Assembly (NCBI GenBank): GCA_038874655.1
Contig: JAVZBY010000002.1
Coordinates: forward strand, 86,040 to 150,039
DNA length: 64,000 nt
From: Candidatus Woesearchaeota archaeon
Lineage (GTDB): Archaea > Nanobdellota > Nanobdellia > Woesearchaeales > GW2011-AR15
Reading direction: 5' to 3'
The notes beneath the pieces are model-generated. The model made no database searches. It saw only the letters and a list, made by a program, of their open reading frames with translations, and was not told the origin of the DNA. The position numbers were made by a program, and so were the translations under genes. Of this stretch, positions 4,701 to 36,335 are shown piece after piece. Each line of letters starts with the position of its first letter. The stretch's first letter is position 1.

Positions 4701-7700
4701 AACAAACACAACCTTCTTGTTATATAATCTTCCTGATAACATTTATTTATTAAATGGCACATCTACAACACAAACATCAGGATATTATATTTATGATAAT
4801 CCTGATTTACAAATAACTGACTCAGGATACTTTAATTTAAGTGTCCAATGTTTCAATTCATTTAATAAAAACCAAACAAATACTACAGCATGGAATTTAG
4901 CTTGGGGTACTTTAAGTTCTCAATTAATTTATCCATTTGAGCCTATATCTGTTCCTCAAAATTCAACTTTTAATTTTACTTCAAGATTAACTTGTTTAGG
5001 TGGTGAATGTGGTGATGTAAATGCAACATTGGATCCGATTTATATTGTTTTATTTAATCATACCTTTGAAACAGGATTAGAAGATTTTATTTGGTTAGAT
5101 GACATTTATGGCACAAATCAACCAACACAATCAGAGGGTTATGTTACAAACAGAATTTTTTGTCCTAATGGTTTTTGTTTATTTGGTGATTTGCATACTG
5201 TAAATAATAGCAATACAGGTCCTTGGAGTGGTGGCTTTAACAAAACATTTAATTTAACATCTTATACCTATGGATTAAAAGCAAACATTACAGTTAATAT
5301 AACTTTTGATTATAACTTAATAATAGATCAGACAACAGAAGCAGGAGAATATGTTTATCTTTATTATAGAAATATCACCTCAAAAACATCTGTACAAGGT
5401 CCTAACATACAAGGTTCAGGAGCAGGCGGAACTGATGAGGTATTTGAAAATGTCTCAGGTAGAATTTCTTTAATATTTTATAATGTCTCTGATGTTTTTT
5501 CATTTGATGTTGGTTGTTATATGACTGACACAAATGCCAATGACGAAGACGGTGGTTGTTTTATTGATAATATTTTAATTCAAGCAACTGTTGAATTAAA
5601 TAAAGGAAAAATTTCTAATATCCCCGGAACAAAACCCTTCTGGACATTGTCACCTAATCCTTATACAGAAGCGAATTTAGCATGTTTAAGAAATATGATA
5701 GCTGGCCAAAGTTGTAACACTACTTGGGTTGTTAATGCAACAGGTCCTTTATACACGACATGGGACTTTTTTGTTTTATATGAGCCTACAGAATATTCAA
5801 GTTATCTTTCATTTAATAAATCTAAATCAGTTAATATAACAATAACCGATATGGTTAGACCTGTTATTACTTTTGTACAATGTCAAAGAAATTCAACTTC
5901 TTGGGTTTCATGTGATTCTATAAAATACAATGAATACATCTCAGGTGTTAGAGGCACTTGCACATATACAGAAGGCATTATAACAAGTATGAGTTTTAAT
6001 TTAAAAAACCAATTTTACAATAGGACTTATTTTGATGTTTCAACCACAGACAATTCAACTAACTATTGGACATCAACCTTTAGTCCAATTAGAGTTAATA
6101 ACTCAGGTAATTTTGCTTTGTATTCAAGGTGTTATGCAAACTCTCTATTTGGTGATTATTCATTAAATTGGTCTTTACCTTATGGAACAATCTATATTTC
6201 ATGGATAAATTTATCTAGTGAAGTAAATGTAACGCAAAATAAATTTTCTAATTTTTCTGTTTTATTAACATGTCAAGGAGGAGAATGTATAAACATAAGT
6301 GCATTTATTGATCCAGAAATAGGCCAACAATTTGCATTAATGACCTTTGATGGTTCAACTAATTTTCCATTAAGGGATGGTCTATGTAACACAGCAACAG
6401 ATACATGCGCATTAAGTAATCCTTGGGATGATTTTGACAATTGTATTGCAGGAAATGGTCAATATGGAATATGTGCATCAAGATATGCTGGCTCTGGTGG
6501 AACAGAAAGAGGTTTATTATGCCAAGGATGTGATAGAAATAATGCAGGAAACACAGGCGGCTTATATATTTCATTAAACTCAACACCATGTGGTGGCTAT
6601 CCTTGTCAATATATTTTTATTTCATATTATCAAGCAGTACAAAGCATGGATGCAGCAAATGAAGGCAGTGTTGTTTTAGTTAGGGATAATGATGGTATTT
6701 GGCGAGAAGTTTCAAGATGTATTGATAATGACTTATGCGATTGTGATAGAATAGCAGGATGTACTTTAGCCACAATCGGACAATATGCACAATATGTAAA
6801 TGTAAATTTATGTGATATCCCAGGAATTGATTGTACTCAACCATTAGATATATTTTTCACTTCTTACGCAACTAATGTAAATCAAGGAACTGGAGATTAC
6901 TTTATGTGGGATCAAATTAATATAACAGGCTATTTACCAAAAGGGATTATATCTTATGGAAGTGGCTCTCCTTTTTATACTACCTATGCTAATCCTGTTT
7001 ATAGACAAAATAATTCATGTTTAGCTTATTTAGATGTAGGCCAATCTTGTATAATTACCTGGCCAGTAAATGCAACAGGAAACTTAAATTCTCTACACGA
7101 ATTTTATGTAAATGCCACAACCTTTAATAATCAAACAACTCAAAGTTCAATAATTGATGTAAGAATAACAGATAATAAACTGCCTTATGTTTCTTTTATA
7201 ACTTTGAATCCAATTAATCCAACTTCTTATGATAATTTAAATTGCTCATTTATAATAAATGATGCTAATTATTTTGATAAATTATATGCAAACATAACAT
7301 GGTATAGAAATGATATTGTTTATTCAAATCAAATGATATCCATTAATAATAATCAATTAACTTCAGTAATTTTATCAAGCTCCAATACAAATAACGGAGA
7401 AGTTTGGCATTGTGGTATAACACCTTATGACGAAACTGTTTATGGAAATCAATTAAATTCAACAAAAGTCAATATCCTAATTAGTCAGCCACCAATAATC
7501 TCTAATGTACAATGCCAAAGAAACTCAACTTCCTGGGTATCATGTTCAGATATTAAGTTTAATGATATTTTAACAATGGTTAGAGCACAATGCATAGATT
7601 TAGATGGTTATGTAATGAATGTTACTTTTAATTTAACAAATTTTGAAGACAAATATTTATTTTTTAAAAATACAACCTATATGCCAGAATCAGGATATTA

Positions 7701-10700
7701 CTACTTTAATAATACAGATATCCTAATAAGAGATTCTGGTAATTTTAATTTATCTGTTTCTTGTATTGATGATACTAATGTAGAAACAGTTTATTATTTA
7801 ACTTGGCTTGTTCCATTTGGAAAATTAAAAGGGCAATGGTTAAATCCCCCAAATATTAATGTAAATGTTACTAGGTATAAATTATCTAACTTCTCAGTTA
7901 GAATTATATGCGAGGGTGGTGAATGCGGAAATATTACTGCGGTTTTAGATCCCTTAATATTATATCCACAAGCGAACATGGATTTTGAATCTCCAACTAA
8001 TTTTCCATTAGCCACTGGACAATGTGGCACTGGCGCAGGTTGGCAATGTGCAGATTCTTCTCCTTGGGATGATTTTGACAATTGTATAGGCGGAAATGGT
8101 GTTTATGGTATTTGTGCATCAACAGAAGCAAACTCAGGAGAAACAGGCATTAGAGGTTTAGAATGTAGGGGTTGTGATAGAGCAGATGCATTAAACCAAG
8201 GTGGATTATACATAAACATTCCAGCAAGATCTTGCAATGACTATGTTTGTGAGCAAATCAATATTTCTTTTTACCAAATTGTTCAAAGTATGGATAATGC
8301 AAATGAAGGAAGCGCTGTCTTAGTAAGAGATGAAGATGGAATTTGGCGTAATTTAACAACTTGTATGGATAATCAACCAAGATGTGATTGTGATGTCATT
8401 CCTGGCTGTACTAGAGCAGAAATGGGTGCTTATGCTCAATTTTTCAAAAAAGATTTATGTCAAGTTCCAGGAATAAATTGCAGTCAAAATATAAGTATTT
8501 TATTTACTTCTTATAATCTAATAAATCATGGAACAGACGATTATTTCGCATGGGATAAAATTTTAGTTGAGAAATATGGACAAAAAGGCATTATTCCAGT
8601 TGGTAGTGGTTTTCCATTTTATGTAATTGAAAACAATCCTAGAACATGGAATGATTTTTCATGTTTATATAATATGACCTCTGGAGACTCATGTGAAATT
8701 ACATGGCAAGTAAATGCAACTGGAAACTATAATAAAACACATGAGTTTTTTGCTTATTTTAATTCAACATATTCAGCTATCGAATTAAATGAAACAAAAC
8801 ATATTTATGTAACAATTACAGATAACTTTCCACCGAGAGTTACTTATGTCGAAATTGGTCCAGAAGTTGCGCTTAATGATACAGATATCTATTGTAGCTT
8901 TATTATAACAGATCCAAATTACTTTGATAGTTTATGGGCTAATATAACATGGTATAGAAATAAAACTTTCTACTTTAATCAACAAGTTCCTATATCCATA
9001 AATACACTAACACAAGTTTATTTATTGGCAAATAATACAGAGCCAGGTGAATATTGGCACTGTGGTGTAACACCTTTTGATGGTTCTATTTATGGAAATC
9101 AAGTTAATTCAACAAATTTAACAATTTATTTATATCCACCCCCAAGCATAAATTCAATACAATGTAATGTGAATGGATTATGGAAAGATTGTAAAAATAT
9201 TTTGTATTTTACTAATTTTTCAGCAATAAGAACTAATTGTTCCTCAAATGAAGGAATGGTTAATGCAACATTTAACTTCACAAATATTCCTGATAATAAA
9301 GTATTCTTTAACAATTTAACAACAACCTACTCAAATGGCTATTTTATTTTTGATTTTGAAGACATAAACATTACAGATTCAGGTGAAATGGAAATTTATG
9401 CAAAATGTATAGATAATGTTAATCAAGTTGTTTATGGAAAAGTAAATTGGACAATTCTTTGGGGAACACTAACAGCATCCTTAGTTTATCCAGACTCAGA
9501 TACAAGTGTTCAAAGAAATAACTTCTTTACTTTCCAAGCAAGAGTAACTTGCTCGGGGGGTGAATGTGGAAACATAAATGCAACATTAGATCCTTATACA
9601 AATTCAACTATTTATGATTTTAAGCAAGGATATAATATTGATAAATTCGCTTGGGTCATAGATAGTAATAATAATCCACCAGAGTCATTGCCAAATTCAA
9701 GAACAGCATTAACTTTAGCACAAGTTGCACTGATAAATGTTTCAGATAATAATAGATATACAATGCCAGATCCAGGAGCGGGTGATTGGATTTCATTGGA
9801 TATGATAATGAATATAAAAGAAAAAAGAGAAGACATAACAAAAATGCAATTTTATTTTGAGGGTTATCCTAATATAGCATCAACATTACAAATATATGCA
9901 TGGAATTTTAATACAAATACATGGAACTCATTAGGAACACAGTCTTTTTCAACAGGTTCTGACCAAATAATGACAGTAAATATAACATCAAATATATTAA
10001 ATTACATAAATGCTTCAAACAATAATATAAGATGGCTTTTATTAAATACATTAACTAGTGAATACATATTAGTTGATTATGTTTATGTAAATATAACTTA
10101 TAATGCGTATAAAGGAATTATCCCAAGACAAGAAGGTGCAATTCCTTTTTATACAAGAGACTATAACCCAAAAGATTATACAAATCAATCCTGTTTGGGC
10201 AATATGATATCCGGCCAATCATGTATTGCATCATGGTTAGTTAATGCCACAGGACCTTTAGGTTCAACACATGAATTTTTTGTTTATTTCAATGCAACAA
10301 ATTATTCACAATATATTATGCCTAAAGAAACAACCCATATCTTTATTACAATAACAGATTCAACATTAGTACCGCCAATTGTTATTTTAAATGATCCTCA
10401 AGATAATTTATACACAAATAATCAAAATATTATATTTAATTGTTCAGTTACAGATAATTTTAATTTAAAAAATATTAGTTTAGTAGCTGATTTCAACGGA
10501 ATTTTTGATATAAATGAAACTTATCAAATAACTGGAACATCAAACACATCTTTATTTTACAAATATTTAGATGATGGAAAATACATATGGAATTGTTTGG
10601 CTTATGATTCAGATAATAATTTAGATTGGGGAAATTCAAATAGAACTTTAACAATTGATACAAAAGAGCCAACAATAATCTTAAATAATCCTTTAAATGA

Positions 10701-13700
10701 GTCCTCTTTTACTACAACAAACCTTGCTTTAAACTTTACAGTAATTGATGCATTAGATAAAATACTAAATTGTGATTTATACTTAAATGGATTTTTATAT
10801 CAGCAAAATATTAATGCAAACAATAATTCTAATACAATAATTAATTTAATAAATTTAACACCTAATACTTACAAATGGTTTATTACTTGTATAGATGATG
10901 CAACAAATATGAATGTTAGTGAAGAATATATATTTTATATATCAGATTTACCTCCAAGTGTCAGCTTATTAACACCTAACAATATTTATTTTAGAACACC
11001 AAACATTTCATTATTTTATTTTGCTACAGATAATTTAAATATTAATCTATCAACTTTGATATTAAATGGTTATCCTTTTGCATATCAATATAATTTAGGA
11101 ACATCAGTAATATCAAGTTTTAATTTAACTTATATGCCAGAGGGATTATATAATTGGACTGTTAATGTTTCTGATTCTAGTAATTTAACAGATCAAGCCC
11201 CATATAGATATTTCACGATAGATTATACAGAACCAATAATTTACATTTATGCTCCAGATAATAATTTGACAATTAATGAAACACAAACAAGAATCAACTT
11301 TACAGTTGTAGATAATTTAGATTTCATGATAATGTGTAATCTCACTATAAATAATCAAATTGCTCAAACAAACATACCAGCAATTAATAATTCTTTTGTT
11401 TCATATTTAATTACAAATTTCTATGATGGTTTAAATTATTGGAATTTAACATGTTTTGATGATGCAGGTAATTATATCACTTCTGAAACGAGGATACTAA
11501 ATGTTAGTGCTCCTCCAAATGTTGTTTTAAATTATCCCTTTAATAATCATTTCCAAAACCAACAAAATATAACTTTATATTATACACCACAAGATAATGT
11601 TAATTTATCTGTCTGTGAATTATTTATTAATGGTCAATATAATCAATCAAACATTGAAATAACAAATGGAGTACAAAATACATTTGAATTAACATCCTTA
11701 AGTGAAAACATATACTCTTGGTCTGTAAGATGTAATGATACTTCTAATCTTTCAACAATGTCAGAAACAAGAATATTTACAATAGATTTGACAAAGCCAA
11801 CAATTTATTTATTATATCCAAATAATGGTGATACTATTTATGGAAAATGGACCAATTTTAATTTTAGTGTTATTGATAACTTTGATATAAACTTATCTTG
11901 TAATATTACAGTTGACGGATTAATAAGAAAATCTAATTTACCTGTTTTGAATAACACACCAACTAATTTTACAATAAATGTAAGTGATGAAGGTCCTCAC
12001 ACATGGTATATAACCTGTATAGATGATGCAACTAATTTTAATGTCAGTGAAACAAGAAATTATTTCACAACAAATCCGCCAGAAGTGCAATTAGTTTTCC
12101 CTAATAATGGAGCAATTATTAATTATAACTTAATTAATTTCACTTATATACCGATTGATGATAATTTAGCAAGTGCAACCTTAATTTTAAATGGACTAAG
12201 AAATGAAACAAATACTACTTTATACAATGAACTAGAGAATTATTTCAGAATTTATTTAACAGATGGAATTTATAATTGGACTGTCAATGTAACAGACGCA
12301 ACAAATCTTTATACAATGCCTGATGTATTAACTTTTACAATAGATTCAACACCTCCATTAATAACAATACATCATCCTGCTGGTTTTGAAATATTAGATT
12401 GGAATAATATCACCTTCAACTTTACTGTGAGTGATAATTTATTTCAACCAATTTATTGTAATATAAGTATTAATTCAGTTCCACAATTTACTAATATTCC
12501 AGTAAATAATAATTCCAATGTAATTAGATATTATTCTCTAAATGATGGTACTCATTCATGGCAAGTTAGATGTATTGATTTAACAAATAATACTGCAATA
12601 CAAACACAGAATTTCATAGTAGAAGCACCACCAAGAGTAAATCTAATAAATCCAGTAAATCAAACAAGAACAACACAACAATCTTTTAATTTCCAATATT
12701 TACCCTATGATGTCTTTGGTCTTTATAATTGTACTTTAATATTAGATAATAAATTAAATGAATCTAGTTCCTCTATATTGAATAACCAAATTAACACTTT
12801 ATTTGTTTCATATATACCAGAAGGTTTACATAATTGGACAGTAAGATGTATTGATAATCCTCCAGATTATAATTCATATCAGCCAGAACCTTGGCAATTT
12901 AGAATTGACTTAACAGGACCAACAATAATTCTAAAATATCCTATGCAAGACCAAACATTTAATTTAAACAATATTACTTTTAATTACACGGCAATTGATT
13001 CTGATAATATTATAATTGATTGTAATATATCTGTGTCAGACCCATATGGAAATAGATTAAATGCAACTTCAATGCCTGCAGGATATGATCATATAATAAC
13101 TATAACAAATCTTGCAGATGGAGATCATTATTGGAATGTTACTTGTGTAGATGATCTAGGAAATGTTAATACAAGTGAAACAAGAAGATTTATTATTAAT
13201 CAACCAGATTTATTTACAAATAATAATCTTGTTTTCCTAAACAACATAAATCCAGATTTATATGAAAACATTACAATTTCCATAAATGTATCAAATATAG
13301 GTGGACAACCAGCAAACAATGTTTTAGTAAACTTCTATGATGGAAATCCGAATTTAGGTGGCTTATTTATAGGTAATGATACTAACTCAGTTGCAATAAA
13401 CCAAACTATTGCATTTACAACATCATGGCTAATAACACCAGGTTATCATACAATTTACATTAGTGTAGATCCATATAATCAGATTTCTGAATTAGATGAA
13501 ACTAATAATAATGCAACAATTAATATAAGTGTATTATGGGCTAACATTACAAATCCAAAAAATCAATCCTGGTTTAATACATTAATAGTTCCAATAAACT
13601 TTACTGCATATGATTACACAGGAAATTCAATTACTTATATTGTTTTAATTGATAATACTCCTAATGGTCAAAATGGTTATGTAATTGATAGCATAAATAA

Positions 13701-16155
13701 TGAATTAAATGTTTCATTTACACAAGGCATACATACAATAAAAATTAGAGTTAATGACACTTATTATTACTTAGGAAACACATTACAAAGAATAAAAGAT
13801 TCATTGCCCATAATTTTATACATTGATACAACTCCACCAACAATTACATTTAATACATTTAATTTAACATGGTTTAATTCAGAGCCAATAATAAACTTCA
13901 CTATAACAGATAATTTAGATAATTTAATTAATTATATAATTTATATAAATAATAATCCAGTTACATCTGGATCAGCAAATTCAAGCCCACAAAACATAAC
14001 AATATATAATTTACAAAATGGAACTTATGAAATCTATATAGAAGCATTTGACGAAGCACTTAATTATAGAAATTCCTCTGTATTAACAATTTATCTAGAT
14101 ACTGTAAAGCCAACAATCTACTTATTGGCACCTCAAAATGGAATCTCTTTATTAGCTAATTATACAACCTTTAATTTTTCAGTAATTGATAATTTAGACA
14201 CATTATTACAATGTAATTTAACAATTGATGCTAAAGTGAATGTTTCAAACATATATGCTTATAATAATTCTATAAATAGCACAGCTGTTTATAATTTAAG
14301 AGAAGGCACTCATTATTGGAATGTTAGTTGTTGGGATGGCAACTTAATAACACCTGTAAGTTTAATAAACACTTCAGAAACATATTACTTCAATGTATAT
14401 AATCCACCTATAATAAAGCTAATACAACCAGAAAACAACAATTGGACAAATAACCCAGAAGTTATTTTCTTCTTTAATGTTAGTGAGGAAACAGGATTGC
14501 AAAACTGCTCTATTTTATTAAATGGAATTATTCAAAATACAAAACAAGGTAATTTACTTAATAAAAATGGTTTAAATAATATAACTTTAACAAACTTAAA
14601 TGGCACATATTCTTGGCAAATTGAGTGTTATGATAATACAACAATTTATAATTATGCAATCTCAGAATCAAGAACTTTAAATGTTGATTTAGATGCACCG
14701 ATTCCTTATATAGAAACATTAAATAATACTTGGTTTAATTATAATAATCCCTTAATCTATTTTAATATATCTGATAACATGGCTTCAATAATTAATTATA
14801 CTTTTTATGTGAATTCAACACAAAACAGACAAGGCAGTGTAAATAATGCAACATCCACATCTATTAATTTAAATCCAATTCAAGATGGTTATTATTTATT
14901 AACATTAGAGGCATTTGACTATGCTTACAATAGAAGAAATAGTTCCTCTATAACAATTTTTGTTGATACAACTAAACCAACAATAAGTTTATTATCTCCA
15001 ATTAATGGATTCAGCACATCAGATACAAATATATTGTTTAACTTTACATCATTAGATAATTTAGCAAAAACAATGATATGTAATTTAACAGTTGACAATC
15101 AAATTATTAAATCATTCAACACGACATCAGGGTTATCTAATTACACTTATTTAAATATGGCAGCAGGTATTCATTATTGGAATGTATCCTGTTCAGATTT
15201 AGTTGGTAATTTCAATACAAGTGAAACATATTACTTTATAATCCCATTGCCTGATTTATATGTATCAGCAGATTATATCCTCTTTAATACAACAGCACCA
15301 GAAGAAAATACAAATATAACTATAAATGCAACAATCTTTAATATAGGAAACACAACTGCATACAATGTTACAATACAATTCTGGGATGGTCACTATTTAA
15401 ATGGAACACAAATTAATGGAAATTTTACATATAATATTTCAGCAGGCCAAAACATAACTATTAATTTATCATGGAAAGTAAGTTCTGTAGGAGACCACTT
15501 TATCTATGTTATAGCTGATCCACCCTTACAAACAAATGGAACGATTAAAGAATCTAATGAAACAAATAATTATGCATATAAACTTATAATTGTTGGTAGT
15601 TATACATATATTTATGGTAATTTCTCAGGATTCCTAAATTTAAAGGACTTAAACAATATAACTGTCTATCAATGGGATATTAATGATTTAAACGGTTCAA
15701 AAATATTTGCTGTTGATTATGATAGTATTATAGATTGGCAGAAATTACAAGCAATCTCTAGAGATATTTATAATAACTATGTGTCTAATGACTTTTATGA
15801 AATAGATTTAGCATTAAGAATGGAAAATAACTCTGATTCTATAAATAAAACATGGATCTATAATAATAATCCTTATTACACAAAAAATTATAATGTTTTC
15901 CTCAATAATATACAAAATATTCCTTTTATTAACTCAACAAATACTACAAATTTCCAAACAGGTATTTTATGGGATTACTCTGATGGAAACACGCAATATA
16001 ATGGGACACAGGATTTAGTATTTTTTACAATTGTTAATATAAATCAAACAGGAATACATGGAAAATATGACTACGAATTAAGAGTTCCAGCAAACTTAAG
16101 ATATTATAAACAACCAAATATAGCTACAATTGCATTATATACAGAATTAAAATAA
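1765..16155 (+). CDS. Giant secreted surface glycoprotein (4796 aa): MG2-like N-terminal domains, four scaffold-plus-insert modules, long Ig-like array, two CARDB-like domains, C-terminal family-A domain
   Basis: N-terminal signal or TM helix. Repeated (W/Y)NxxCxD Ig-like units. PDL...NIG...ExNETNN CARDB-like motifs. Very dense sequons. C-terminus aligns with the 23949, 24851 and 36336 proteins. Confidence 0.9.
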   Translation: MNSEKNYPKFVSLFLIILIIVISIVIINAQNLLENNYIKINKKEFFLGETVEIELLINDLNNINIDLYTPNAIYKYPFPSKIIKYKPILEGNYRLVVLKNKEILTTTTFFVKKNEYNLIEEILNQSTIKNNEETENLLDINKPNLITDKETYLLNQEVIISINNLSIDDLSNYNLIINSSNTIINYIDLKSNTIKFFPKKQGIYTLILISKKSNEEIAKKEISVNSFNQQFNNEISLNYDNKTNSINNNIDNQKEIMINQSIEYSDNLFNNSKNIEQLNRQYNNLPFKIKNSKNYFLIANITISNKRLKNLSLDTFSFINLSDDLYDIEIQPNIRQIRKIKLHNVSFKGNFDLGLEEIDSQATKFKDIKKAIAIDPSKINFTNGFIEINATSDVLLKCKDWNFTEQKCFGKFELIKTLNKGQTYFIDINSTDPAYYELGLASINTNKSLYKENETAQIWIVALDYTGHLISNANITLQIISPNNEIFIFSTDSNISQIELGIYELNFTTKEQGNYTIFANVYSNLINTTLFSFFSVVDYYEFEIIRKSPLTTDPWRDTFTTKLKIISNNHNGLFNLTEKIPIGFEIIETDAIITNDSNYYYLTWNNLQNNSEVNYTALAPFITPAVYEFKSFVSYEMNNQSLIFNEAKPWFLAVDPIMYTQVCQAQINSVGQNTFGSACDGVYPSSCSATGDLLTCNDNFFETHTGTNTNRWAGVRISAYDSTIRDCVSITRVELCYEWWRDIGFSNARIAVDRNNWASPTTVTTTLPGTTANPGVTCADVTSLEAWTCDNFDGTGQAAQAVAQAQRDNSGSTRTLYIDVLFFNVTYLRDYPPNITQNRPPSYYYNDTFSPINITFNCSAVDDIRVSNISLYITNLNNNSFALNQSCNILATSGSCQWTLLLPSGNYTWNCLAYDNRTQGTWGTNRTIIINYTMPPTPKINSYSCEINTLNNWQPCNTIAYGNTILRVRANCTTDSGLITNTTFLLYNLPDNIYLLNGTSTTQTSGYYIYDNPDLQITDSGYFNLSVQCFNSFNKNQTNTTAWNLAWGTLSSQLIYPFEPISVPQNSTFNFTSRLTCLGGECGDVNATLDPIYIVLFNHTFETGLEDFIWLDDIYGTNQPTQSEGYVTNRIFCPNGFCLFGDLHTVNNSNTGPWSGGFNKTFNLTSYTYGLKANITVNITFDYNLIIDQTTEAGEYVYLYYRNITSKTSVQGPNIQGSGAGGTDEVFENVSGRISLIFYNVSDVFSFDVGCYMTDTNANDEDGGCFIDNILIQATVELNKGKISNIPGTKPFWTLSPNPYTEANLACLRNMIAGQSCNTTWVVNATGPLYTTWDFFVLYEPTEYSSYLSFNKSKSVNITITDMVRPVITFVQCQRNSTSWVSCDSIKYNEYISGVRGTCTYTEGIITSMSFNLKNQFYNRTYFDVSTTDNSTNYWTSTFSPIRVNNSGNFALYSRCYANSLFGDYSLNWSLPYGTIYISWINLSSEVNVTQNKFSNFSVLLTCQGGECINISAFIDPEIGQQFALMTFDGSTNFPLRDGLCNTATDTCALSNPWDDFDNCIAGNGQYGICASRYAGSGGTERGLLCQGCDRNNAGNTGGLYISLNSTPCGGYPCQYIFISYYQAVQSMDAANEGSVVLVRDNDGIWREVSRCIDNDLCDCDRIAGCTLATIGQYAQYVNVNLCDIPGIDCTQPLDIFFTSYATNVNQGTGDYFMWDQINITGYLPKGIISYGSGSPFYTTYANPVYRQNNSCLAYLDVGQSCIITWPVNATGNLNSLHEFYVNATTFNNQTTQSSIIDVRITDNKLPYVSFITLNPINPTSYDNLNCSFIINDANYFDKLYANITWYRNDIVYSNQMISINNNQLTSVILSSSNTNNGEVWHCGITPYDETVYGNQLNSTKVNILISQPPIISNVQCQRNSTSWVSCSDIKFNDILTMVRAQCIDLDGYVMNVTFNLTNFEDKYLFFKNTTYMPESGYYYFNNTDILIRDSGNFNLSVSCIDDTNVETVYYLTWLVPFGKLKGQWLNPPNINVNVTRYKLSNFSVRIICEGGECGNITAVLDPLILYPQANMDFESPTNFPLATGQCGTGAGWQCADSSPWDDFDNCIGGNGVYGICASTEANSGETGIRGLECRGCDRADALNQGGLYINIPARSCNDYVCEQINISFYQIVQSMDNANEGSAVLVRDEDGIWRNLTTCMDNQPRCDCDVIPGCTRAEMGAYAQFFKKDLCQVPGINCSQNISILFTSYNLINHGTDDYFAWDKILVEKYGQKGIIPVGSGFPFYVIENNPRTWNDFSCLYNMTSGDSCEITWQVNATGNYNKTHEFFAYFNSTYSAIELNETKHIYVTITDNFPPRVTYVEIGPEVALNDTDIYCSFIITDPNYFDSLWANITWYRNKTFYFNQQVPISINTLTQVYLLANNTEPGEYWHCGVTPFDGSIYGNQVNSTNLTIYLYPPPSINSIQCNVNGLWKDCKNILYFTNFSAIRTNCSSNEGMVNATFNFTNIPDNKVFFNNLTTTYSNGYFIFDFEDINITDSGEMEIYAKCIDNVNQVVYGKVNWTILWGTLTASLVYPDSDTSVQRNNFFTFQARVTCSGGECGNINATLDPYTNSTIYDFKQGYNIDKFAWVIDSNNNPPESLPNSRTALTLAQVALINVSDNNRYTMPDPGAGDWISLDMIMNIKEKREDITKMQFYFEGYPNIASTLQIYAWNFNTNTWNSLGTQSFSTGSDQIMTVNITSNILNYINASNNNIRWLLLNTLTSEYILVDYVYVNITYNAYKGIIPRQEGAIPFYTRDYNPKDYTNQSCLGNMISGQSCIASWLVNATGPLGSTHEFFVYFNATNYSQYIMPKETTHIFITITDSTLVPPIVILNDPQDNLYTNNQNIIFNCSVTDNFNLKNISLVADFNGIFDINETYQITGTSNTSLFYKYLDDGKYIWNCLAYDSDNNLDWGNSNRTLTIDTKEPTIILNNPLNESSFTTTNLALNFTVIDALDKILNCDLYLNGFLYQQNINANNNSNTIINLINLTPNTYKWFITCIDDATNMNVSEEYIFYISDLPPSVSLLTPNNIYFRTPNISLFYFATDNLNINLSTLILNGYPFAYQYNLGTSVISSFNLTYMPEGLYNWTVNVSDSSNLTDQAPYRYFTIDYTEPIIYIYAPDNNLTINETQTRINFTVVDNLDFMIMCNLTINNQIAQTNIPAINNSFVSYLITNFYDGLNYWNLTCFDDAGNYITSETRILNVSAPPNVVLNYPFNNHFQNQQNITLYYTPQDNVNLSVCELFINGQYNQSNIEITNGVQNTFELTSLSENIYSWSVRCNDTSNLSTMSETRIFTIDLTKPTIYLLYPNNGDTIYGKWTNFNFSVIDNFDINLSCNITVDGLIRKSNLPVLNNTPTNFTINVSDEGPHTWYITCIDDATNFNVSETRNYFTTNPPEVQLVFPNNGAIINYNLINFTYIPIDDNLASATLILNGLRNETNTTLYNELENYFRIYLTDGIYNWTVNVTDATNLYTMPDVLTFTIDSTPPLITIHHPAGFEILDWNNITFNFTVSDNLFQPIYCNISINSVPQFTNIPVNNNSNVIRYYSLNDGTHSWQVRCIDLTNNTAIQTQNFIVEAPPRVNLINPVNQTRTTQQSFNFQYLPYDVFGLYNCTLILDNKLNESSSSILNNQINTLFVSYIPEGLHNWTVRCIDNPPDYNSYQPEPWQFRIDLTGPTIILKYPMQDQTFNLNNITFNYTAIDSDNIIIDCNISVSDPYGNRLNATSMPAGYDHIITITNLADGDHYWNVTCVDDLGNVNTSETRRFIINQPDLFTNNNLVFLNNINPDLYENITISINVSNIGGQPANNVLVNFYDGNPNLGGLFIGNDTNSVAINQTIAFTTSWLITPGYHTIYISVDPYNQISELDETNNNATINISVLWANITNPKNQSWFNTLIVPINFTAYDYTGNSITYIVLIDNTPNGQNGYVIDSINNELNVSFTQGIHTIKIRVNDTYYYLGNTLQRIKDSLPIILYIDTTPPTITFNTFNLTWFNSEPIINFTITDNLDNLINYIIYINNNPVTSGSANSSPQNITIYNLQNGTYEIYIEAFDEALNYRNSSVLTIYLDTVKPTIYLLAPQNGISLLANYTTFNFSVIDNLDTLLQCNLTIDAKVNVSNIYAYNNSINSTAVYNLREGTHYWNVSCWDGNLITPVSLINTSETYYFNVYNPPIIKLIQPENNNWTNNPEVIFFFNVSEETGLQNCSILLNGIIQNTKQGNLLNKNGLNNITLTNLNGTYSWQIECYDNTTIYNYAISESRTLNVDLDAPIPYIETLNNTWFNYNNPLIYFNISDNMASIINYTFYVNSTQNRQGSVNNATSTSINLNPIQDGYYLLTLEAFDYAYNRRNSSSITIFVDTTKPTISLLSPINGFSTSDTNILFNFTSLDNLAKTMICNLTVDNQIIKSFNTTSGLSNYTYLNMAAGIHYWNVSCSDLVGNFNTSETYYFIIPLPDLYVSADYILFNTTAPEENTNITINATIFNIGNTTAYNVTIQFWDGHYLNGTQINGNFTYNISAGQNITINLSWKVSSVGDHFIYVIADPPLQTNGTIKESNETNNYAYKLIIVGSYTYIYGNFSGFLNLKDLNNITVYQWDINDLNGSKIFAVDYDSIIDWQKLQAISRDIYNNYVSNDFYEIDLALRMENNSDSINKTWIYNNNPYYTKNYNVFLNNIQNIPFINSTNTTNFQTGILWDYSDGNTQYNGTQDLVFFTIVNINQTGIHGKYDYELRVPANLRYYKQPNIATIALYTELK
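4567..10365 (+). repeat. Four intragenic protein-level modules (C..W..C / CxGGEC...DP [insert] KG.I...PF...CL...SC..W.VNATG)
   Basis: GGEC...DP ends at 5037, 6315, 7953 and 9594. KG(I/K)I begins at 5602, 6940, 8584 and 10111. Confidence 0.85.
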
Positions 16156-16176: not shown

Positions 16177-18039
16177 ATGAAAAATAAAAACATAATAAGA
16201 ATTACTTTATTTTTATTTGTTTTAATATTATTTAGTTTTATTATTGTTATTTATATTGCAAAAGCACAATGTCAATTAAAAGAAATTCCGTTTTTTGAAT
16301 TAAATGAAGGGGACATTTTTAATTATACTTTAAATTTTGTAAATCAAAACATTTCTGAAAAAGGATTATCAGAAATTAAAATTTCACTTATAAAGATAAA
16401 TTCTTCAATAAATCCTGTGATTAAAAATAATCTAATTAATTTTAAAGCAGATCAAAACTCAGGAAACAAAAATTCGTTTTTAATTGTTTCAACAATGGAA
16501 AATGGGTGCTATGATGTTAAGAAATTTGATTTTTTTGTTTATTTAAAACCTAAAATTATGGAAAAAAACCCAATAGAGGATTATTTAGAAATTTATGAGA
16601 CACAATCAATAAAATTTTATGCTTCAGCATATTCTTTTTATGATACTGATGTAAAAACAGAGTGGTATTTAAATGGAATTAAACAAAAAGAGAGTTCTAA
16701 TTCTTATATCTTTTTCACAAATTATAGTTCAAAAGGATTATTCACATTAGAATATGTTGCAAAAGATAAAAGGCAAAACACAACAATAAAATGGTTAATA
16801 AATGTAAAAGATAAAAATAGAAAACCTATTTTAAGATTTAATATTCCTGACTTTGTTTTAACAAATTATACAAGAGGAAGATTATTGAATTTAAATGATT
16901 ACTTTCAAGATCCAGATTTAGACAAATTAAAATTTGAATTAGTTTATTTTGATAAAATTAATAATTCTATTAAAGAAAAGTCCTATGAAATTTTTAATTT
17001 TAGTATTAAAGATAATGGTGATTTTGAAGTTTATCCAATTAAAAACATTTATTTAACAGAATATCTTAAAGTAATTGCTTATGATTTTCAAGGAGAAAAA
17101 GCAGAAAGCAATATTTTCTTTATGAAATTAGTTAATTCAGATAATATAAGTTATATCTTTCTAAATACTTCAAAAAAAGAACAATGTAAACCAAATATAC
17201 AATGTACAGAATGGAGTCCATGTTTGATTACAAACATTAGAACAAGAGAATGTTTTGATGTAAATAATTGTAATTCAGAGAACACTACAATTACAGAAAC
17301 AATGCATTGTGATTATAATGCTACTTGTAATGATGGAATTTTGAATCAAGGTGAAGAAAAAGTTGATTGTGGTGGCCCATGTGAACCCTGTCCAACTTGT
17401 GATGATGGTATTTTAAATCAAGGTGAAGAAAAGGTTGATTGCGGCGGTCCTTGTCAAGCTTGCGAAAATTGTTATGATGGTATAAAAAATCAAAATGAAA
17501 TATTTACCGATTGCGGTGGTCTATGTAAAAGTTGTTTATTATTAGATATTATTAACTTCATAAAAAGTTATTATTATTTAGCATTTATATTTATATTTTT
17601 ATTAATTATAAAAATCTATTCAAAAAACATTAGTAGTTCTGATAAAATAAAAAATTATATCTTTTATTCAAAACTATTTAATTTTTTACCTAAAAAAATT
17701 CCAGAAAATTATAAAGAGATTTTTACTCAAACAATTTCAGATTTAACAAGCATAAAAAATGATATTTTAAATCTTGAAGATAAAGAAAAAATAAAAGAGA
17801 AATTTTATAATATTATAGATAACTTTTACAAAAATTTTTTAGAATTAGATCTTGTAAATAATATTACTGTAAAAAATTCTTCAAAAAAAATAATAAATCC
17901 CTTTTTAAGAGAATTAATCTTGTTATTGTATTATGATACAAGAGATATTTCAGTTGAATCACCTTTTTATAGAATTGAGTTAAATGAAAAAATAGATCAA
18001 ACAATTGCAATATTAAATAAGATTAGGGATTTATTATGA
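16177..18039 (+). CDS. Membrane-anchored surface protein with cadherin/Ig-like domains and Cys-rich CxDGxxNQxExxxDCGG repeats
   Basis: Signal peptide, LNDYFQDPDLDKL cadherin-like motif, C.EWS.C..R.C.D.N.C unit, three DCGG repeats, TM helix and cytoplasmic helical tail. Confidence 0.8.
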   Translation: MKNKNIIRITLFLFVLILFSFIIVIYIAKAQCQLKEIPFFELNEGDIFNYTLNFVNQNISEKGLSEIKISLIKINSSINPVIKNNLINFKADQNSGNKNSFLIVSTMENGCYDVKKFDFFVYLKPKIMEKNPIEDYLEIYETQSIKFYASAYSFYDTDVKTEWYLNGIKQKESSNSYIFFTNYSSKGLFTLEYVAKDKRQNTTIKWLINVKDKNRKPILRFNIPDFVLTNYTRGRLLNLNDYFQDPDLDKLKFELVYFDKINNSIKEKSYEIFNFSIKDNGDFEVYPIKNIYLTEYLKVIAYDFQGEKAESNIFFMKLVNSDNISYIFLNTSKKEQCKPNIQCTEWSPCLITNIRTRECFDVNNCNSENTTITETMHCDYNATCNDGILNQGEEKVDCGGPCEPCPTCDDGILNQGEEKVDCGGPCQACENCYDGIKNQNEIFTDCGGLCKSCLLLDIINFIKSYYYLAFIFIFLLIIKIYSKNISSSDKIKNYIFYSKLFNFLPKKIPENYKEIFTQTISDLTSIKNDILNLEDKEKIKEKFYNIIDNFYKNFLELDLVNNITVKNSSKKIINPFLRELILLLYYDTRDISVESPFYRIELNEKIDQTIAILNKIRDLL

Positions 18040-20789
18040 AAAAATATAATGACATTACTAATAAAATTAAAATAAAAATATTAAAAAAAATATTGCAATT
18101 AATTTTTAGGTTATACTTTAGATTATACTTATTTATTTCATGTTTTATATTATTTATATTATTTTTTAATCCTGTCTTTTCACAAGAATTAAATTTTTCA
18201 CTAGAATTAAATAAAGTCAATTTTTTTCTTAATGAACCTGTAATTATAAATTTAGAAGAGGATTATTATAAATTAAATAACACAAATTCATTTGATAATT
18301 TAACATTAAAAATAATATCCCCAAACCATTATTATAATTATTTAGGAGGTCTAGATAAAAGATTAATTTTTCAACCAAATGAAATTGGTAAGCATTATAT
18401 AGAATTATATTTTAATAATGAGCTGGTAAAAAAATTAGAATTTATTGTTTTTGAAACCAATTCTCAAGTTTCTGAGAATTCTTCTGTTTTAAATAACTTA
18501 AATATATCGCGAAACAATATATATAATAATGTTTCTGAAAATCAAACAGAAATTATGATTATTCAAAATTCAAATTTTTCAACAAAACAATCGAATATAA
18601 AATTATTAGATATCATAAAAATTAATGTAAAACAAAATTATTCTTTAGATGAAAATGTTTTTATCACACTAACAAAAAATGAACAAACTCTTTATGCAAT
18701 AAATCCAAGAGAAGACATCAATTTTTCAAAATTAATAATACATTCAAATAAAGATTATGTTTATGAAAATCCAAAAAATAAAATAATTTTTAAACCTTCT
18801 GAACTTGGTAAACATGAAATTATTTTATATGATACTTTTGATAATGAAGTAGCAAGAGCATCATTTAATGTTATAGAAAATAAAAAATTTATTATTAAAG
18901 ATAGTAAGGGGAAAAAAATAGATGCAACATTTCAATACAAAGATAAAATAAAAAAAAATATTTCTGAATTAATTTCTGAAATTAAAAATGAAAAAAATCA
19001 AAAAATAGAATTAACAGTTTTACCTAATCTAAAAAATATAAAAAAAATTACTTTTAAAGATATAAACCTAGAAAATAGTTTTGATTTTTATCTAGAAGAT
19101 CTTGATACATTTAATTTAGAAAGAAGTTTCATAAAAGCATATGCAATTAATCCTGAAAATTTAGATTTCTCAGAAGCAATTTTAACAAGCATAAGTCAAG
19201 GAAAAACACTTTATAAGTGTGCAGAATGGAATTTTCAAGAACAAAAATGTTATGGTATTTGGAAAAAAATAATGTCTTTAGTTCCTGGACAAGAATATAA
19301 TGTTATTATAACAAAAAATGACCCTGCATATGCAGAAAGTAATGAACTTATTGAACCTAAACCTGTAAGTGGTTTTGTTTTTATGTCAGATAATACAAGA
19401 GCAAATAATGGTATTCCAGTAAGAATTTTTAATAAAGCAAATGGTGAAAGTGTTTTAACACAGGTTTATGCACCACCAATTCCAATATATAAAGGAGCTT
19501 ATTCTGCTAATATTTATGGAATAACTGGAGATTCTATTGTTGTAAGAGCATGGAATTCTACACATTATGGCGAAACAAATGCAACTTTATTAGCAACAAC
19601 AACTTATGTTAATATAACAATTCAATATTTTAAAGGAAGTGAACCCAATGTTTCAATAATTTATCCATTAAATAATTCAATTTTTTATTTAGGTCAAAAT
19701 TTTAATATAACTGCAAAAGTTCAAATATTAAATAACAATGCAGAAAAGTGTTATGCTTCTTTTATTAGCACATTAGCTGAACCAATAACAGGGCAAAGTA
19801 ATACAATTTTTTTAGGAGACATAATGCAAAATAATGAAATTACTTTTATGTTTAATTTAACTGCAATAAAAGGCGGCTATGAAAAATTAATTGTTAATGT
19901 TTCTTGTTCAACAGATACAATTCTAGATGGCTTAAATATAGCAAGAGTAAATTTAACTTTTATTGATAATGTTAAACCAGAGATAACAATATTTAAACCT
20001 CTAAATAATGAAGAATCATTAAATCCTATTAAGTTTATATTTAATGTTTCAGATCATACGGGCATAAAAAACTGCTCATTAATTTTTAATGGTAATTTAA
20101 ATCAGACAATTTTTAATCCACAAATGTATATTTTACATTCTTTTAATTTAACCTTGCAAGCAGGAACATATAATTATAACATTGATTGTTATGATAATTC
20201 AACTTTATTTAATTATAATATTACTGAAACCATAAACTTTTTTCTACCCTCATGGCATTTTTATTATGGTAATATAAGCTCAAAAATATTTTTAGGCTCT
20301 GGGGAAATTGAAAAATATTCTTGGGAAACCTATTCAGAGGCATATCTTTATGTGATTGAAACAAATACAGTTGTAGATTGGAATAATTTACAAGCATTAG
20401 GTAGAGATAAATTTAATAATTCAGAATTTAATGATTTTAACGAAGCAGATATCAATTTATCGATGCAAAATTTTGTTGATTCAATTAATAATACTTTTAC
20501 TCAAAATTATCAACCAAAAAAATTAGTTAATTTAACCATTTTCGGAAAAAGAATAAATAACATTCCAGTAATAAACTCAACAAATAACTCTAATTTTATT
20601 ACAGGCATTCTCTGGGAAATGACTGGCAATAATTATAATGGTAGCCAAAATTTAATATTCTTTACAAATAAAAGTATTGCAAAACAAGGCAAATTTGGTT
20701 TATATGAATATGAAATAAGAATCCCTGCTAATTTGAAAAATTATAAATTAAATTCTGGGACTATCACTTTTTATACTGAGATAATATAA
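18036..20789 (+). CDS. Secreted multidomain protein (917 aa) sharing N-terminal domains with the giant proteins and ending in a family-A domain
   Basis: AINP...LYKCAEWNFQEQKCYG...NDP is shared with 1765 and 43763. Ends WHFYYGNISS...DSINNTF...YEYEIRIP...FYTEII. ATGA overlap with the upstream gene. Confidence 0.85.
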   Translation: MKKYNDITNKIKIKILKKILQLIFRLYFRLYLFISCFILFILFFNPVFSQELNFSLELNKVNFFLNEPVIINLEEDYYKLNNTNSFDNLTLKIISPNHYYNYLGGLDKRLIFQPNEIGKHYIELYFNNELVKKLEFIVFETNSQVSENSSVLNNLNISRNNIYNNVSENQTEIMIIQNSNFSTKQSNIKLLDIIKINVKQNYSLDENVFITLTKNEQTLYAINPREDINFSKLIIHSNKDYVYENPKNKIIFKPSELGKHEIILYDTFDNEVARASFNVIENKKFIIKDSKGKKIDATFQYKDKIKKNISELISEIKNEKNQKIELTVLPNLKNIKKITFKDINLENSFDFYLEDLDTFNLERSFIKAYAINPENLDFSEAILTSISQGKTLYKCAEWNFQEQKCYGIWKKIMSLVPGQEYNVIITKNDPAYAESNELIEPKPVSGFVFMSDNTRANNGIPVRIFNKANGESVLTQVYAPPIPIYKGAYSANIYGITGDSIVVRAWNSTHYGETNATLLATTTYVNITIQYFKGSEPNVSIIYPLNNSIFYLGQNFNITAKVQILNNNAEKCYASFISTLAEPITGQSNTIFLGDIMQNNEITFMFNLTAIKGGYEKLIVNVSCSTDTILDGLNIARVNLTFIDNVKPEITIFKPLNNEESLNPIKFIFNVSDHTGIKNCSLIFNGNLNQTIFNPQMYILHSFNLTLQAGTYNYNIDCYDNSTLFNYNITETINFFLPSWHFYYGNISSKIFLGSGEIEKYSWETYSEAYLYVIETNTVVDWNNLQALGRDKFNNSEFNDFNEADINLSMQNFVDSINNTFTQNYQPKKLVNLTIFGKRINNIPVINSTNNSNFITGILWEMTGNNYNGSQNLIFFTNKSIAKQGKFGLYEYEIRIPANLKNYKLNSGTITFYTEII

Positions 20790-22355: not shown

Positions 22356-23429
22356 ATGGCTCTTTTTAAAAACTTATATTTGGATTTAAGTTATTTAAAC
22401 CCTTTTTCATATTTTAAAAAAAACAATAAAAGTGATAAAATCCAATATAATGATGTATCCAAAAATCAGGTTTATTCTTCAGAAGCATATTCAAATAATT
22501 TTAACAATCTAAAATTAGATGATAATATGTTAATTGATTCTCAAATCAATACAATCTCTAATGAAGAAAATGAAAAAACAGAAAACCTGGAATTGCCTGA
22601 TGTTTCCAAAAAACTTCTTTCTGAAAAAAATGAAACAGAAAAAAAGCTTCCAAAAATAAATATTGTTATGCCTCCTCCTTTGATTAATAATTCTGACTCA
22701 CAAACACCAATTAAAAATTCGGATGAAAAAAATATTTTATTGCACAATAAATTCAGTATAGAATCATCACAGCAATTACAAAATTCAAGTTATTTAAATC
22801 AAATAGATAAAAAGAATGAAGAATCATTTATAGAAAATACATCTTTTTCACACTCTTATTTTAACGATATCTATCATCAATTAAATACAAATCAGATAAA
22901 CAAATCTTTGTCAAATAAAATTTATAATCCTAATTTATTAGAAGAAATGCAAACTTTTTGGAAACTTAAAAAAGAAGAGATAAATCAAATCAAATTTAAT
23001 TCAACAGTCAAAACAGAATTATTAAAAAAATTAACAGAATTACAAAAATTAGAAACAGAGTGGCAGAATCTTCAATTACAAAGCGAAAAAATCAATGATT
23101 TACTCTTTTCAAAGGAGATTCTTATAGAAAATCAAGTAAAACAAATAAAAAAATTGTTTAAAAAACTACATTTAACTGTAAATGCACCATTAAATCAAGA
23201 ATTTATATTATCAAATGGTAATAGAATTTATAATCTTAATGAATTAATTAATATTCTAAAGAATATAGAGGATAATATCTTTTTTTATCATGTTAATGAC
23301 AATAAAAATGATTTTTATAACTGGATAAGAGACGTTTTTGGCTTTAATGAGTTAGCAGATCAAATAAAAAATATAAAAGATAAAAATCAAATGGCAGATA
23401 TAATAGAAAAATGGGCTAATCATATTTAA
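22356..23429 (+). CDS. Cytoplasmic protein with a low-complexity N-terminus, coiled coil and C-terminal DUF5752-like domain
   Basis: FILSNG..I.NL.EL...FFYHVN..KNDF..W matches the C-terminus of 39456. The family name is from memory. Confidence 0.7.
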   Translation: MALFKNLYLDLSYLNPFSYFKKNNKSDKIQYNDVSKNQVYSSEAYSNNFNNLKLDDNMLIDSQINTISNEENEKTENLELPDVSKKLLSEKNETEKKLPKINIVMPPPLINNSDSQTPIKNSDEKNILLHNKFSIESSQQLQNSSYLNQIDKKNEESFIENTSFSHSYFNDIYHQLNTNQINKSLSNKIYNPNLLEEMQTFWKLKKEEINQIKFNSTVKTELLKKLTELQKLETEWQNLQLQSEKINDLLFSKEILIENQVKQIKKLFKKLHLTVNAPLNQEFILSNGNRIYNLNELINILKNIEDNIFFYHVNDNKNDFYNWIRDVFGFNELADQIKNIKDKNQMADIIEKWANHI

Positions 23430-23758: not shown

Positions 23759-23968
23759 ATGAAACCAACTGAATGGGTTAAATTAGTTTATAGTGAAACC
23801 CCTGATAAAGCAAATGTAAAACAGGGTTTTCTTTATGATGAGGGAGATTTCTATAGAATTGTTGGTTCTAATTCTGAAACACTTGTAAGAAAAGTCAATG
23901 TCATCTCTATTACTAAAAAAATTAATTTTGAAAAAAAGGTGAGAAACTATGAAAGAATTAGGCTATAA
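23759..23968 (+). CDS. Small beta-rich protein (possible Sm/SH3-like barrel)
   Basis: 69 aa with an AGGTG RBS and strand pattern VKLVY..G.L.DEGDFYRI..TLVRK.NVISI. Overlaps the next gene. Confidence 0.65.
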   Translation: MKPTEWVKLVYSETPDKANVKQGFLYDEGDFYRIVGSNSETLVRKVNVISITKKINFEKKVRNYERIRL

Positions 23969-36237: not shown

Positions 36238-36335
36238 CCAACACCCCCAATTTATTAATAATAAAACTCCTTTATATTCTTTTTTATTTTTACAGGATTT
36301 CATTTTTGATTTTAAAACCACAATCAGTTTTCTAC

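Follow-up and report, generated by a model that had tools for sequence, protein, structure and literature searches.

Introduction

Are the C-terminal domains of two large surface proteins of a woesearchaeal genome the end pieces of chains that would be built from small secreted subunits encoded beside them? The question is raised by a locus in a stretch of 64,000 nucleotides of a Candidatus Woesearchaeota genome, hereafter called the window (positions 86040-150039 of contig C2 in genome G000, which is 1.26 Mb long and 97 % complete). F1 and F2 denote the fused proteins, which end in what we call the F-type domain, and A1, A2, and A3 are the free subunits of the same domain family (family A) in the window, A2 providing the reference numbering for the family-A domain. 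The original prediction, made from the sequence alone, held that the C-terminus of the giant protein F1 is homologous to the free subunit A2, that the fused copies lack an N-terminal extension and two cysteines carried by the free ones, that this extension is a donor strand, and that the fused domains cap the polymer.

Most DPANN archaea have not been brought into culture; a life attached to other cells is assumed for them, although little is known of how they attach. The window has a G+C content of about 18-31 %, and its coding strand specifies very large surface proteins rich in N-x-S/T. Where close homologues of the proteins studied are named, they belong to Candidatus Woesearchaeota, Nanoarchaeota, or DPANN archaea. 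The source names of the proteins of the domain family are "hypothetical protein" throughout.

Fused and free domains of family A

F1 (4796 amino acids [aa]; 1765..16155, + strand) carries a single N-terminal hydrophobic segment (residues 10-28), followed by immunoglobulin (Ig)-like repeats of the Big_13 and CARDB types (Pfam, 1.2e-19 and 2.1e-20 in the last third of the protein) and, at its C-terminus, by the F-type domain. The last CARDB domain (15253..15594, +) finishes with a strand, after which two residues lead into the F-type domain. The coordinates and frames of the original prediction are right: 15601-16155 (+) corresponds to the last 184 aa plus the stop codon of the 4796-aa open reading frame (ORF), and 20253-20789 (+) to the last 178 aa of a 917-aa ORF. 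The latter is F2 (18036..20789, +), which has a single, N-terminal hydrophobic segment and Big_7 in addition to its F-type domain. A hidden Markov model (HMM) of the fused domain matches both proteins, at 2.7e-74 in F1 (frame residues 4614-4797) and at 1.8e-64 in F2 (frame residues 743-919).

The free subunits of the window are A1 (265 aa; 23949..24746, +), which represents the WQGYYG subtype, A2 (257 aa; 24851..25624, +), which was chosen for modeling, and A3 (253 aa; 36336..37097, -). With F1 and F2, they make up the five domains that had been counted in the window; the genome as a whole holds nine, namely six free copies, F1, F2, and a 602-aa secreted protein encoded just past the end of the window (G000:C2:150391-152199, or positions 2392-4200 of locus L001). 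The gene of this last protein is followed by a helix-turn-helix (HTH) gene and then by those of two further free subunits (230 and 267 aa), which form a second tandem pair. Family A would be made up of secreted, probably N-glycosylated subunits having a beta-rich core of ~175 residues and an extension of ~43 residues at the predicted mature N-terminus.

Fused and free domains are homologous. Against the 96 ORFs of the window, BLASTP relates F1 to F2 (E 7e-38), F1 to A3, the free copy closest to it, over the whole domain (184 columns, E 1e-8), and F2 to A2 (E 6e-4). Profile-profile comparison bears out the homology with A2 well beyond chance: hhalign, given a 35-row alignment of fused domains and a 57-row alignment of the free family, returned a probability of 98.85 % (E 4.1e-17) over 159 aligned columns, with F1 3-187 corresponding to A2 82-253. 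All the motif pairs on which the original prediction relied are in register in this alignment (YTYIYGNFSG/WKAYVGNVSG, IDW/IDW, DSINKTW/DNVNNTF, FQTGILWD/FQEVLLMD, YDYELRVP/YDFQALVP, and LYTEL/FYVEI). G88, N89, G92, L96, W107, Y232, Y252, and E254 are common to free and fused domains, and the acceptor strand, as predicted from the models described below, is the best-conserved element that they share. Over the acceptor-side columns, mean free-fused conservation is 0.29 vs. 0.21 elsewhere, which is a modest difference (one-sided Mann-Whitney p 0.025). F-type domains also have invariant motifs (NSTN..F.TGILWD) that are absent from the free copies.

The two kinds of domain differ at their N-terminal side. 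In the free proteins, a hydrophobic helix is followed by a small-x-small site and then by the consensus xPxGAxIxYxSNxT ... KGTITTxxLxxxQQ, which ends before W83. The fused domains begin at the equivalent of A2 W83, and residues 38-82 are wholly lost. As predicted, the extension of ~43 residues (A2 residues 40-82; 24968..25096, +), which in A2 comes after the hydrophobic helix (residues 7-36 in the AlphaFold2 [AF2] model), is absent from both F1 and F2, as are both cysteines (C132, which is invariant, and C179, which is at least 90 % conserved in free copies); this is seen from the start of the hhalign alignment at A2 82 and from the translations, in which neither fused domain has any cysteine at all. 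Residues 39-100 of A2 do not show a single indel across the 57 free sequences, in which P41 is conserved at 96 %, G43 at 88 %, G67 at 100 %, and Q79 at 93 %. Such conservation would fit a structured, functional element rather than a loose linker. F1 and F2 each end in a domain with a core homologous to that of the subunits and without the N-terminal putative donor segment, which is what would be looked for in an adhesin of the FimH type.

A hydrophobic-segment scan found no C-terminal membrane anchor after the F-type domain in F1 or F2; C-terminal transmembrane (TM) segments are present in the neighboring large surface proteins m829, p738, and m610. The F-type domain would thus be the means of attachment of F1 and F2. 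Indeed, if their N-terminal segment is a cleaved signal peptide, it would be the sole candidate for holding them on the cell.

Distribution of the F-type domain

A profile built from 15 F-type domains retrieved 889 cluster representatives (50 % identity) at E<=1e-3, including 585 at E<=1e-30, out of 1.84 billion. The family is thus widespread, yet neither Pfam nor NCBIfam has a model for it. Among the best 150 of these 889 representatives, 149 carry a domain that ends at most 5 residues from the C-terminus. The exception, P0252 (1756 aa), has an internal F-type domain (residues 1006-1192) followed by an acidic linker and further domains. The domain is also C-terminal in all 33 longer homologues (at most 18 residues from the end, and at most 6 in 28 of them), where it mostly comes after CARDB, and in all 13 of 13 loci of relatives its end and that of the open frame are at most one residue apart. 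Host proteins range from 180 to 7158 aa among the representatives listed, and frames of ~8800 aa occur in relatives. Free-standing F-type proteins were sought among the 23 representatives under 350 aa; the six inspected all begin inside a CARDB-like domain and are N-truncated fragments.

A quick maximum-likelihood tree (IQ-TREE), built on 71 core domains, places all 30 F-type rows on one side of a long branch (Shimodaira-Hasegawa-like approximate likelihood ratio test [SH-aLRT] 100), and F1-like and F2-like domains form separate subclades. An origin of the F-type from an A1-like subtype had been guessed from the WQGYYG motif; neither BLASTP nor the tree supports it.

The distribution of free and fused forms was followed in 41 genomes, G000 plus 40 relatives. 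These are kin and not independent, so that all counts are descriptive. The free-family profile matched 23 of the 41 and the F-type profile 18, all 18 being among those 23; in one of the 18, G029, the F-type and free-type matches are the same 855-aa protein. The five genomes with the free type only are 76-95 % complete. Two F-type matches, which are not to be read as copy numbers, were obtained in 15 of the 18 genomes; in 13, an F-type and a free-type match share a contig and are at most 8 kb apart. Weak free-profile matches in ~1300-aa frames of two further loci, L004 (G004:C7:69619-69996) and L008 (G006:C46:21298-21849), are unmatched by the F-type HMM and may be divergent fused forms.

Gene order is conserved as well. 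The order that recurs in the loci of eight relatives is F1-like, p620, F2-like, (m310), DUF5752, A1, A2, p307, HTH, A3, signal peptidase. The succession A1-A2-p307 is kept in seven of the eight loci, as is the position of DUF5752 upstream of A1; the HTH-A3 pair is found in six, and in four each a signal peptidase adjoins the A3 homologue and a p620 homologue lies between both F genes. In G000, the HTH-A3-signal peptidase block is inverted, lies at a distance of ~10 kb, and contains an insertion that encodes an 829-aa PGF-pre-PGF protein.

Structural models of the free subunit

The AF2 model of the A2 monomer has a mean predicted local distance difference test score (pLDDT) of 80. Residues 38-69 fall below 50, and residues 41-80 range from 37 to 61 (40 for block 61-70 and 61 for block 71-80). 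Strand 68-80 is placed, with low confidence, in a cis hairpin with 83-97. For AbpA, AlphaFold is likewise reported to fold the donor strand back into the monomer (PMC9245690). Thus, the cis placement in the A2 monomer does not settle whether the extension is a donor.

Three copies of mature A2 (residues 38-257) were then modeled together using ESMFold2 and our own alignment (alignment A1). Scores of 0.73, 0.83, and 0.79 were obtained (median 0.79), the best of three controls scoring 0.00. The runs have at least 95 % of their contacts in common, with a partner pLDDT of at least 88. Of proteins solved as pairs, 20 of 30 attain the tool's mark, against one of 23 solved as single chains, a two-copy calibration that holds only roughly for three copies with an alignment of one's own and to that extent lowers the weight of these scores. 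In the best run, residues 52-81 and a few core loops of the scored copy meet residues 79-108, 240-257, and 38-54 of its neighbor, segment 52-81 itself touching 79-108 and 246-257. The residue pairs of lowest error (86-72, 89-73, 90-74, 94-78, and 96-80) describe a parallel register in which strand 68-80 runs along strand 83-97 of the next copy, a trans arrangement that differs from the cis hairpin of the monomer. One run has about twice as many contacts as the others (429 vs. 226-231), which is what a scored copy with a neighbor on each side, as in a chain, would be expected to give. These models support the view that the extension is the main predicted contact between A2 copies.

A proposed mechanism of assembly

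Homology between fused and free domains, loss of the extension in F1 and F2, the C-terminal placing of the F-type domain, synteny, and co-occurrence are observed; the case built on them rests as a whole on models and comparative genomics. In the mechanism that we propose, the free subunits would be exported and cleaved just before the xPxGA motif, as suggested by the small-x-small site. They would then join head to tail by strand donation through the extension, in the way suggested by the three-copy model: the extension of one subunit, centered on strand 68-80, would lie on the first core strand (83-97) and on the last strand (246-257) of the next. That the extension mediates homotypic assembly appears fairly probable.

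F1 and F2 would carry a trimmed, anciently diverged version of the same core, in which the accepting strands are kept and nothing is left to donate. Having no extension to donate, each adhesin would fit only one end of a chain, as do FimH of type 1 pili and ElrA of the WxL pilus. A protein that only accepts would occupy the end toward which the donor arms point. We therefore lean, by a small measure, toward the F-type domain being an acceptor-only end module on a chain of A subunits, which would imply F-to-A binding and a linear filament. The donor arm would lie at the cleavage site, and assembly near the membrane would push the first-assembled adhesin outwards; a location of the F-type protein specifically at the distal tip is a rather doubtful further step.

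A pilin module without a donor that bears an adhesin is a known principle; what is new here is the domain family, the lineage that has it, and how large the payloads are. It may tentatively be suggested that DPANN archaea of the Woesearchaeota/Nanobdellota type possess a further class of chaperone-free strand-donation filament, made from a domain family without recognizable kinship to known pilins, on which a universal C-terminal plug devoid of a donor mounts megadalton-scale adhesins, as an apparatus for reaching and holding a host. If so, an attachment apparatus made up of subunits, two conserved adhesins, and accessory genes would be defined by sequence and would be testable, and the C-terminal module would give a rule for finding the largest adhesins of these organisms. 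This would also be another independent case of a payload joined to a donor-less pilin domain, beside the chaperone-usher and WxL pili.

Opposing evidence and alternative explanations

Several observations weigh against this mechanism. First, fusion to a larger protein is not always accompanied by loss of the extension. The 602-aa protein ends in a family-A domain with the whole extension, an internal PQGA motif included; extension-keeping fusions are also found in relatives (G017 and G018, in frames of 2360 and 639 aa), and the 855-aa fused form of G029 has the second half of the extension only. The original prediction that fused domains lack the extension is thus correct for the F1/F2 type and fails for the 602-aa protein. 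In the tree, the extension-keeping fusions are set apart from the F-type clade. Hence, fusion itself does not remove the extension, and it is only the old, conserved F-type that lacks it. An adhesin that has both donor and acceptor in addition to its payload could take a place within the chain.

The extension is not entirely constant among free forms either. In a "short free" subtype of ~220 aa found in relatives (loci L026-L028: G005:C4, G011:C5, and G010:C4), its first half is gone (no PxGA...Y.SN.T) and the second strand is kept; the nearest relatives of this subtype in the tree are the 231-aa and 230-aa free copies of G000. A search of all ORFs of the genome for donor-only proteins, made with an HMM restricted to the extension (A2 38-82), gave significant matches to family members only (marginal matches at C1:149537-150484, E 0.024, and C1:232901-233320, E 0.056). 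Moreover, the modeled contact between A2 copies would be compatible with either insertion into a groove or edge-to-edge extension of a sheet. Finally, the notion that the signal peptidase of the locus is dedicated in the sense of SipW was rejected, this enzyme being the sole S26 match in the genome.

The alternative that survives best, although we consider it unlikely, is that the F-type domain is a self-sufficient terminal globular module, binding for example glycans or the envelope, which would be completed in cis and would stand outside family-A assemblies, sharing only ancestry with them. The AF2 model of the last CARDB domain of F1 together with the F-type domain is confident with no partner present (pLDDT 91.7, predicted template modeling score [pTM] 0.82). 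The predicted role of the extension as a donor strand gains from the three-copy model and from the low pLDDT of its placement in the monomer, and loses from the confident fold predicted for CARDB+F1 alone. In the CARDB+F1 model, strand E107-114, the last of CARDB (model residues 1-115 match CARDB 3idu_A with a VIA Z of 14.8), leads into E117-122, the first strand of the F-type domain, forming a strand-turn-strand junction. The spacing of two residues between Ig-like and F-type domains is invariant and gap-free in all 23 fused proteins aligned, both with CARDB upstream, as in the F1 type, and with a Big_7-like domain there, as in the F2 type. The last CARDB strand may therefore fill in cis the place that strand 68-80 has in A2, leaving no acceptor site. 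If the strand of a neighbor needs the position filled by CARDB, the F-type domain is no acceptor; if it uses another edge or a groove, the domain is acceptor-only. The invariant motifs specific to the F-type, its long branch from the free copies, and the weak fold matches that the A2 core has among CBM3- and cohesin-like sandwiches (Z about 4) also agree with a self-sufficient module. However, all 18 genomes with F-type matches also have free-type matches, the two lying at most 8 kb apart in 13 of them; gene order is conserved, and the predicted acceptor strand is the best-conserved common element. A self-sufficient module would also leave F1 and F2 without evident cell attachment. As for the capping role, the retained acceptor strand and the comparative genomics that tie the F-type to the free subunits speak for it, and the fused forms that keep the extension speak against it.

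Still less probable is an arrangement in which F1 and F2 are bases or stalks: an uncleaved N-terminal signal-anchor would hold them in the membrane, and their distal C-terminal acceptor would nucleate or hold a chain of A subunits. F1 and F2 indeed have no hydrophobic segment other than the N-terminal one, and no donor-only terminator was found in the genome. However, we know of no precedent for a 4796-aa stalk bearing small subunits. A donor segment placed right after the predicted cleavage site would, in addition, suit growth at the membrane with the first unit distal. Known systems can be quoted on both sides, since in the model proposed for Tafi the acceptor-only end is the anchor TafF and the tip TafC is a donor (PMC11821415), whereas a payload followed by a C-terminal acceptor is the layout of tip adhesins in chaperone-usher and WxL pili (10.64898/2026.10.17.759780).

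That family A forms a two-dimensional surface lattice, small oligomers, or a membrane-tethered layer on which the F-type docks giant adhesins would fit with the six free paralogues, in two subtypes and often in tandem, with a complex model that gives an interface and not a helix, and with the lack of fold likeness to known pilins, but it is improbable given that the modeled interface is head-to-tail via an N-terminal arm, that the 429-contact run is as expected for two chain neighbors, and that the make-up of the locus resembles that of filament loci.

Relationships with known filament systems

Searches for known families and folds place the family-A domain apart, which is a further point against an acceptor-only end module on a pilus-like chain. 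No family for the A domain emerged when all five domains of the window and their neighbors were scanned against Pfam and NCBIfam, and no single family matched more than 4 of the 57 proteins in the free alignment. Searching PDB sequences with a profile brought up no pilin and nothing relevant. With the A2 model, Foldseek gave no match at E<=0.001; its hits to the TasA fiber 8aur (E 0.98, TM-score about 0.1) and to CanA 7uii (E 0.47, TM-score 0.10) are not counted as evidence. In VIA (wide search plus second look), the best matches of this model were generic sandwiches, CBM3- and cohesin-like, with a Z of 4.1 at most, and CanA 7uii was not among the top 50 of the second look. ESM Atlas returned only the family's own archaeal clusters, other structural rows being at TM-scores <=0.25. 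Foldseek and VIA searches with the CARDB+F1 model were filled by CARDB matches and are uninformative on the F-type domain. By fold and by sequence, these searches found no similarity to solved strand-donation pilins, an absence which, according to the tools' own notes, does not prove a new fold.

More specific searches were also negative. The Peptidase_M73/TasA Pfam family gave no match at E<=1 in the window's family-A proteins (P0001-P0004 and A3), nor did WxL (PF13731) in F1, F2, A1, A2, or A3. WxL is also absent from the families listed for the alignments (25 of 36 families for alignment A1). Neither a PapD-like chaperone nor an usher appeared in Pfam scans of the neighboring proteins of the locus. 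Membership in any known pilus family, whether FimH-type, WxL, Tafi, or TasA/AbpA, is not supported. Literature searches, which left supplementary files aside, turned up no account of this family, nor any of filaments built by strand donation in DPANN archaea of the Woesearchaeota type.

Analogy can nevertheless be drawn, and functionally the closest analogues would be FimH-type tip adhesins and the WxL Elr pilus. Two-domain tip adhesins such as FimH and PapG can only accept a strand and are thus confined to one end of the fiber. The system considered here differs in belonging to an archaeon without outer membrane, in a payload of up to ~4600 aa, and in showing no detectable sequence or fold relationship to these adhesins, which are mentioned in PMC9245690 and 10.64898/2026.10.17.759780. 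In the WxL (Elr) pilus of Enterococcus faecalis, the tip adhesin ElrA has a C-terminal WxL module. As in the woesearchaeal locus, an invariant C-terminal module devoid of a donor is combined with a variable payload, small free subunits have an N-terminal donor strand (here a putative one), and a minority of adhesins, like the 602-aa protein, have both donor and acceptor and are proposed to lie inside the chain. In contrast, the WxL system is bacterial and confined to Bacillota, and it uses the membrane chaperone ElrE and a sortase anchor (10.64898/2026.10.17.759780 for all these features). The extension HMM also found no donor-only base subunit among the ORFs of the genome studied here.

Among archaea, the Tafi system of haloarchaea (TafA, TafE, TafC, TafF, TafD, and TafB) unites in one strand-donation locus several paralogous subunits, a protein proposed to form the tip, a signal peptidase, and a regulator of transcription (PMC11821415, PMC12337348). 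A locus of this make-up, with subunit paralogues, a tip candidate, a signal peptidase, and a regulator, is found here too, and its inventory matches that of the Tafi and AbpX loci, where subunits, tip candidates, signal peptidase I, and regulators are described (PMC11821415, PMC12337348, 10.64898/2026.01.04.697558). The polarity would however be opposite, because in the model of Tafi the tip protein TafC donates and the acceptor-only end is the membrane anchor TafF (PMC11821415). Tafi subunits use the Tat pathway, whereas no twin-arginine motif precedes the hydrophobic segment in the N-termini of A1, A2, and A3, and there is no fold or sequence match; Sec-type relatives of TafE do exist (PMC12337348). 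Finally, the TasA/TapA fibers of Bacillus and the archaeal bundling pili AbpA/AbpB resemble the proposed system as chaperone-free strand-donation polymers of secreted subunits with a self-complementing AlphaFold monomer. Larger accessory proteins are proposed to end or nucleate the fiber in these systems, but TapA and AbpB are proposed donors or nucleators, unlike acceptor-only caps (PMC9245690).

Other genes of the locus

Between F1 and F2 lies p620 (16177..18039, +), a protein with two TM segments (hydrophobic segments 9-27 and 462-480) and three cysteine-rich repeats that are near-identical (C.DGI.NQ.E..DCGG.C..C); it has no Pfam or NCBIfam match. With an extracellular part, a second TM segment, and a cytoplasmic tail, its layout is loosely reminiscent of a signal-peptidase accessory protein, DUF5305, that the AbpX preprint describes, with no match found between them. 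Downstream of F2, a DUF5752-like protein is encoded at 22356..23429 (+; Pfam PF19027, 3.8e-6).

Directly after A2 comes p307 (25669..26592, +), a secreted or membrane-tethered beta-rich protein with a hydrophobic segment at residues 12-30, for which Pfam gave no match and ESM Atlas returned only its own archaeal clusters. Its nearest Pfam-bearing cluster in ESM Atlas is WxL, with a score of 0.75, below the level that the tool regards as more than a lead.

The inverted block contains a 184-aa HTH protein directly upstream of A3 (37094..37648, -; Pfam Sigma70_r4_2, 1.2e-6) and the type I signal peptidase (S26; 33306..33806, -; Pfam PF10502, 2.5e-6, with TIGR02228 and TIGR02227 below their cut-offs). 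Between A3 and the signal peptidase lies m829 (33832..36321, -), the 829-aa PGF-pre-PGF-domain protein with a C-terminal TM segment, for which no homologue was matched in the eight relatives' loci examined.

The window encodes a second giant protein (3840 aa; 43763-55285), which has an N-terminal hydrophobic segment only, with neither an F-type domain nor a C-terminal anchor. F1 and F2 for their part have in common an N-terminal module, around KC..WNF.EQKC.G ... DPAY, which recurs in the F2-like proteins P0106 and P0107 of relatives.

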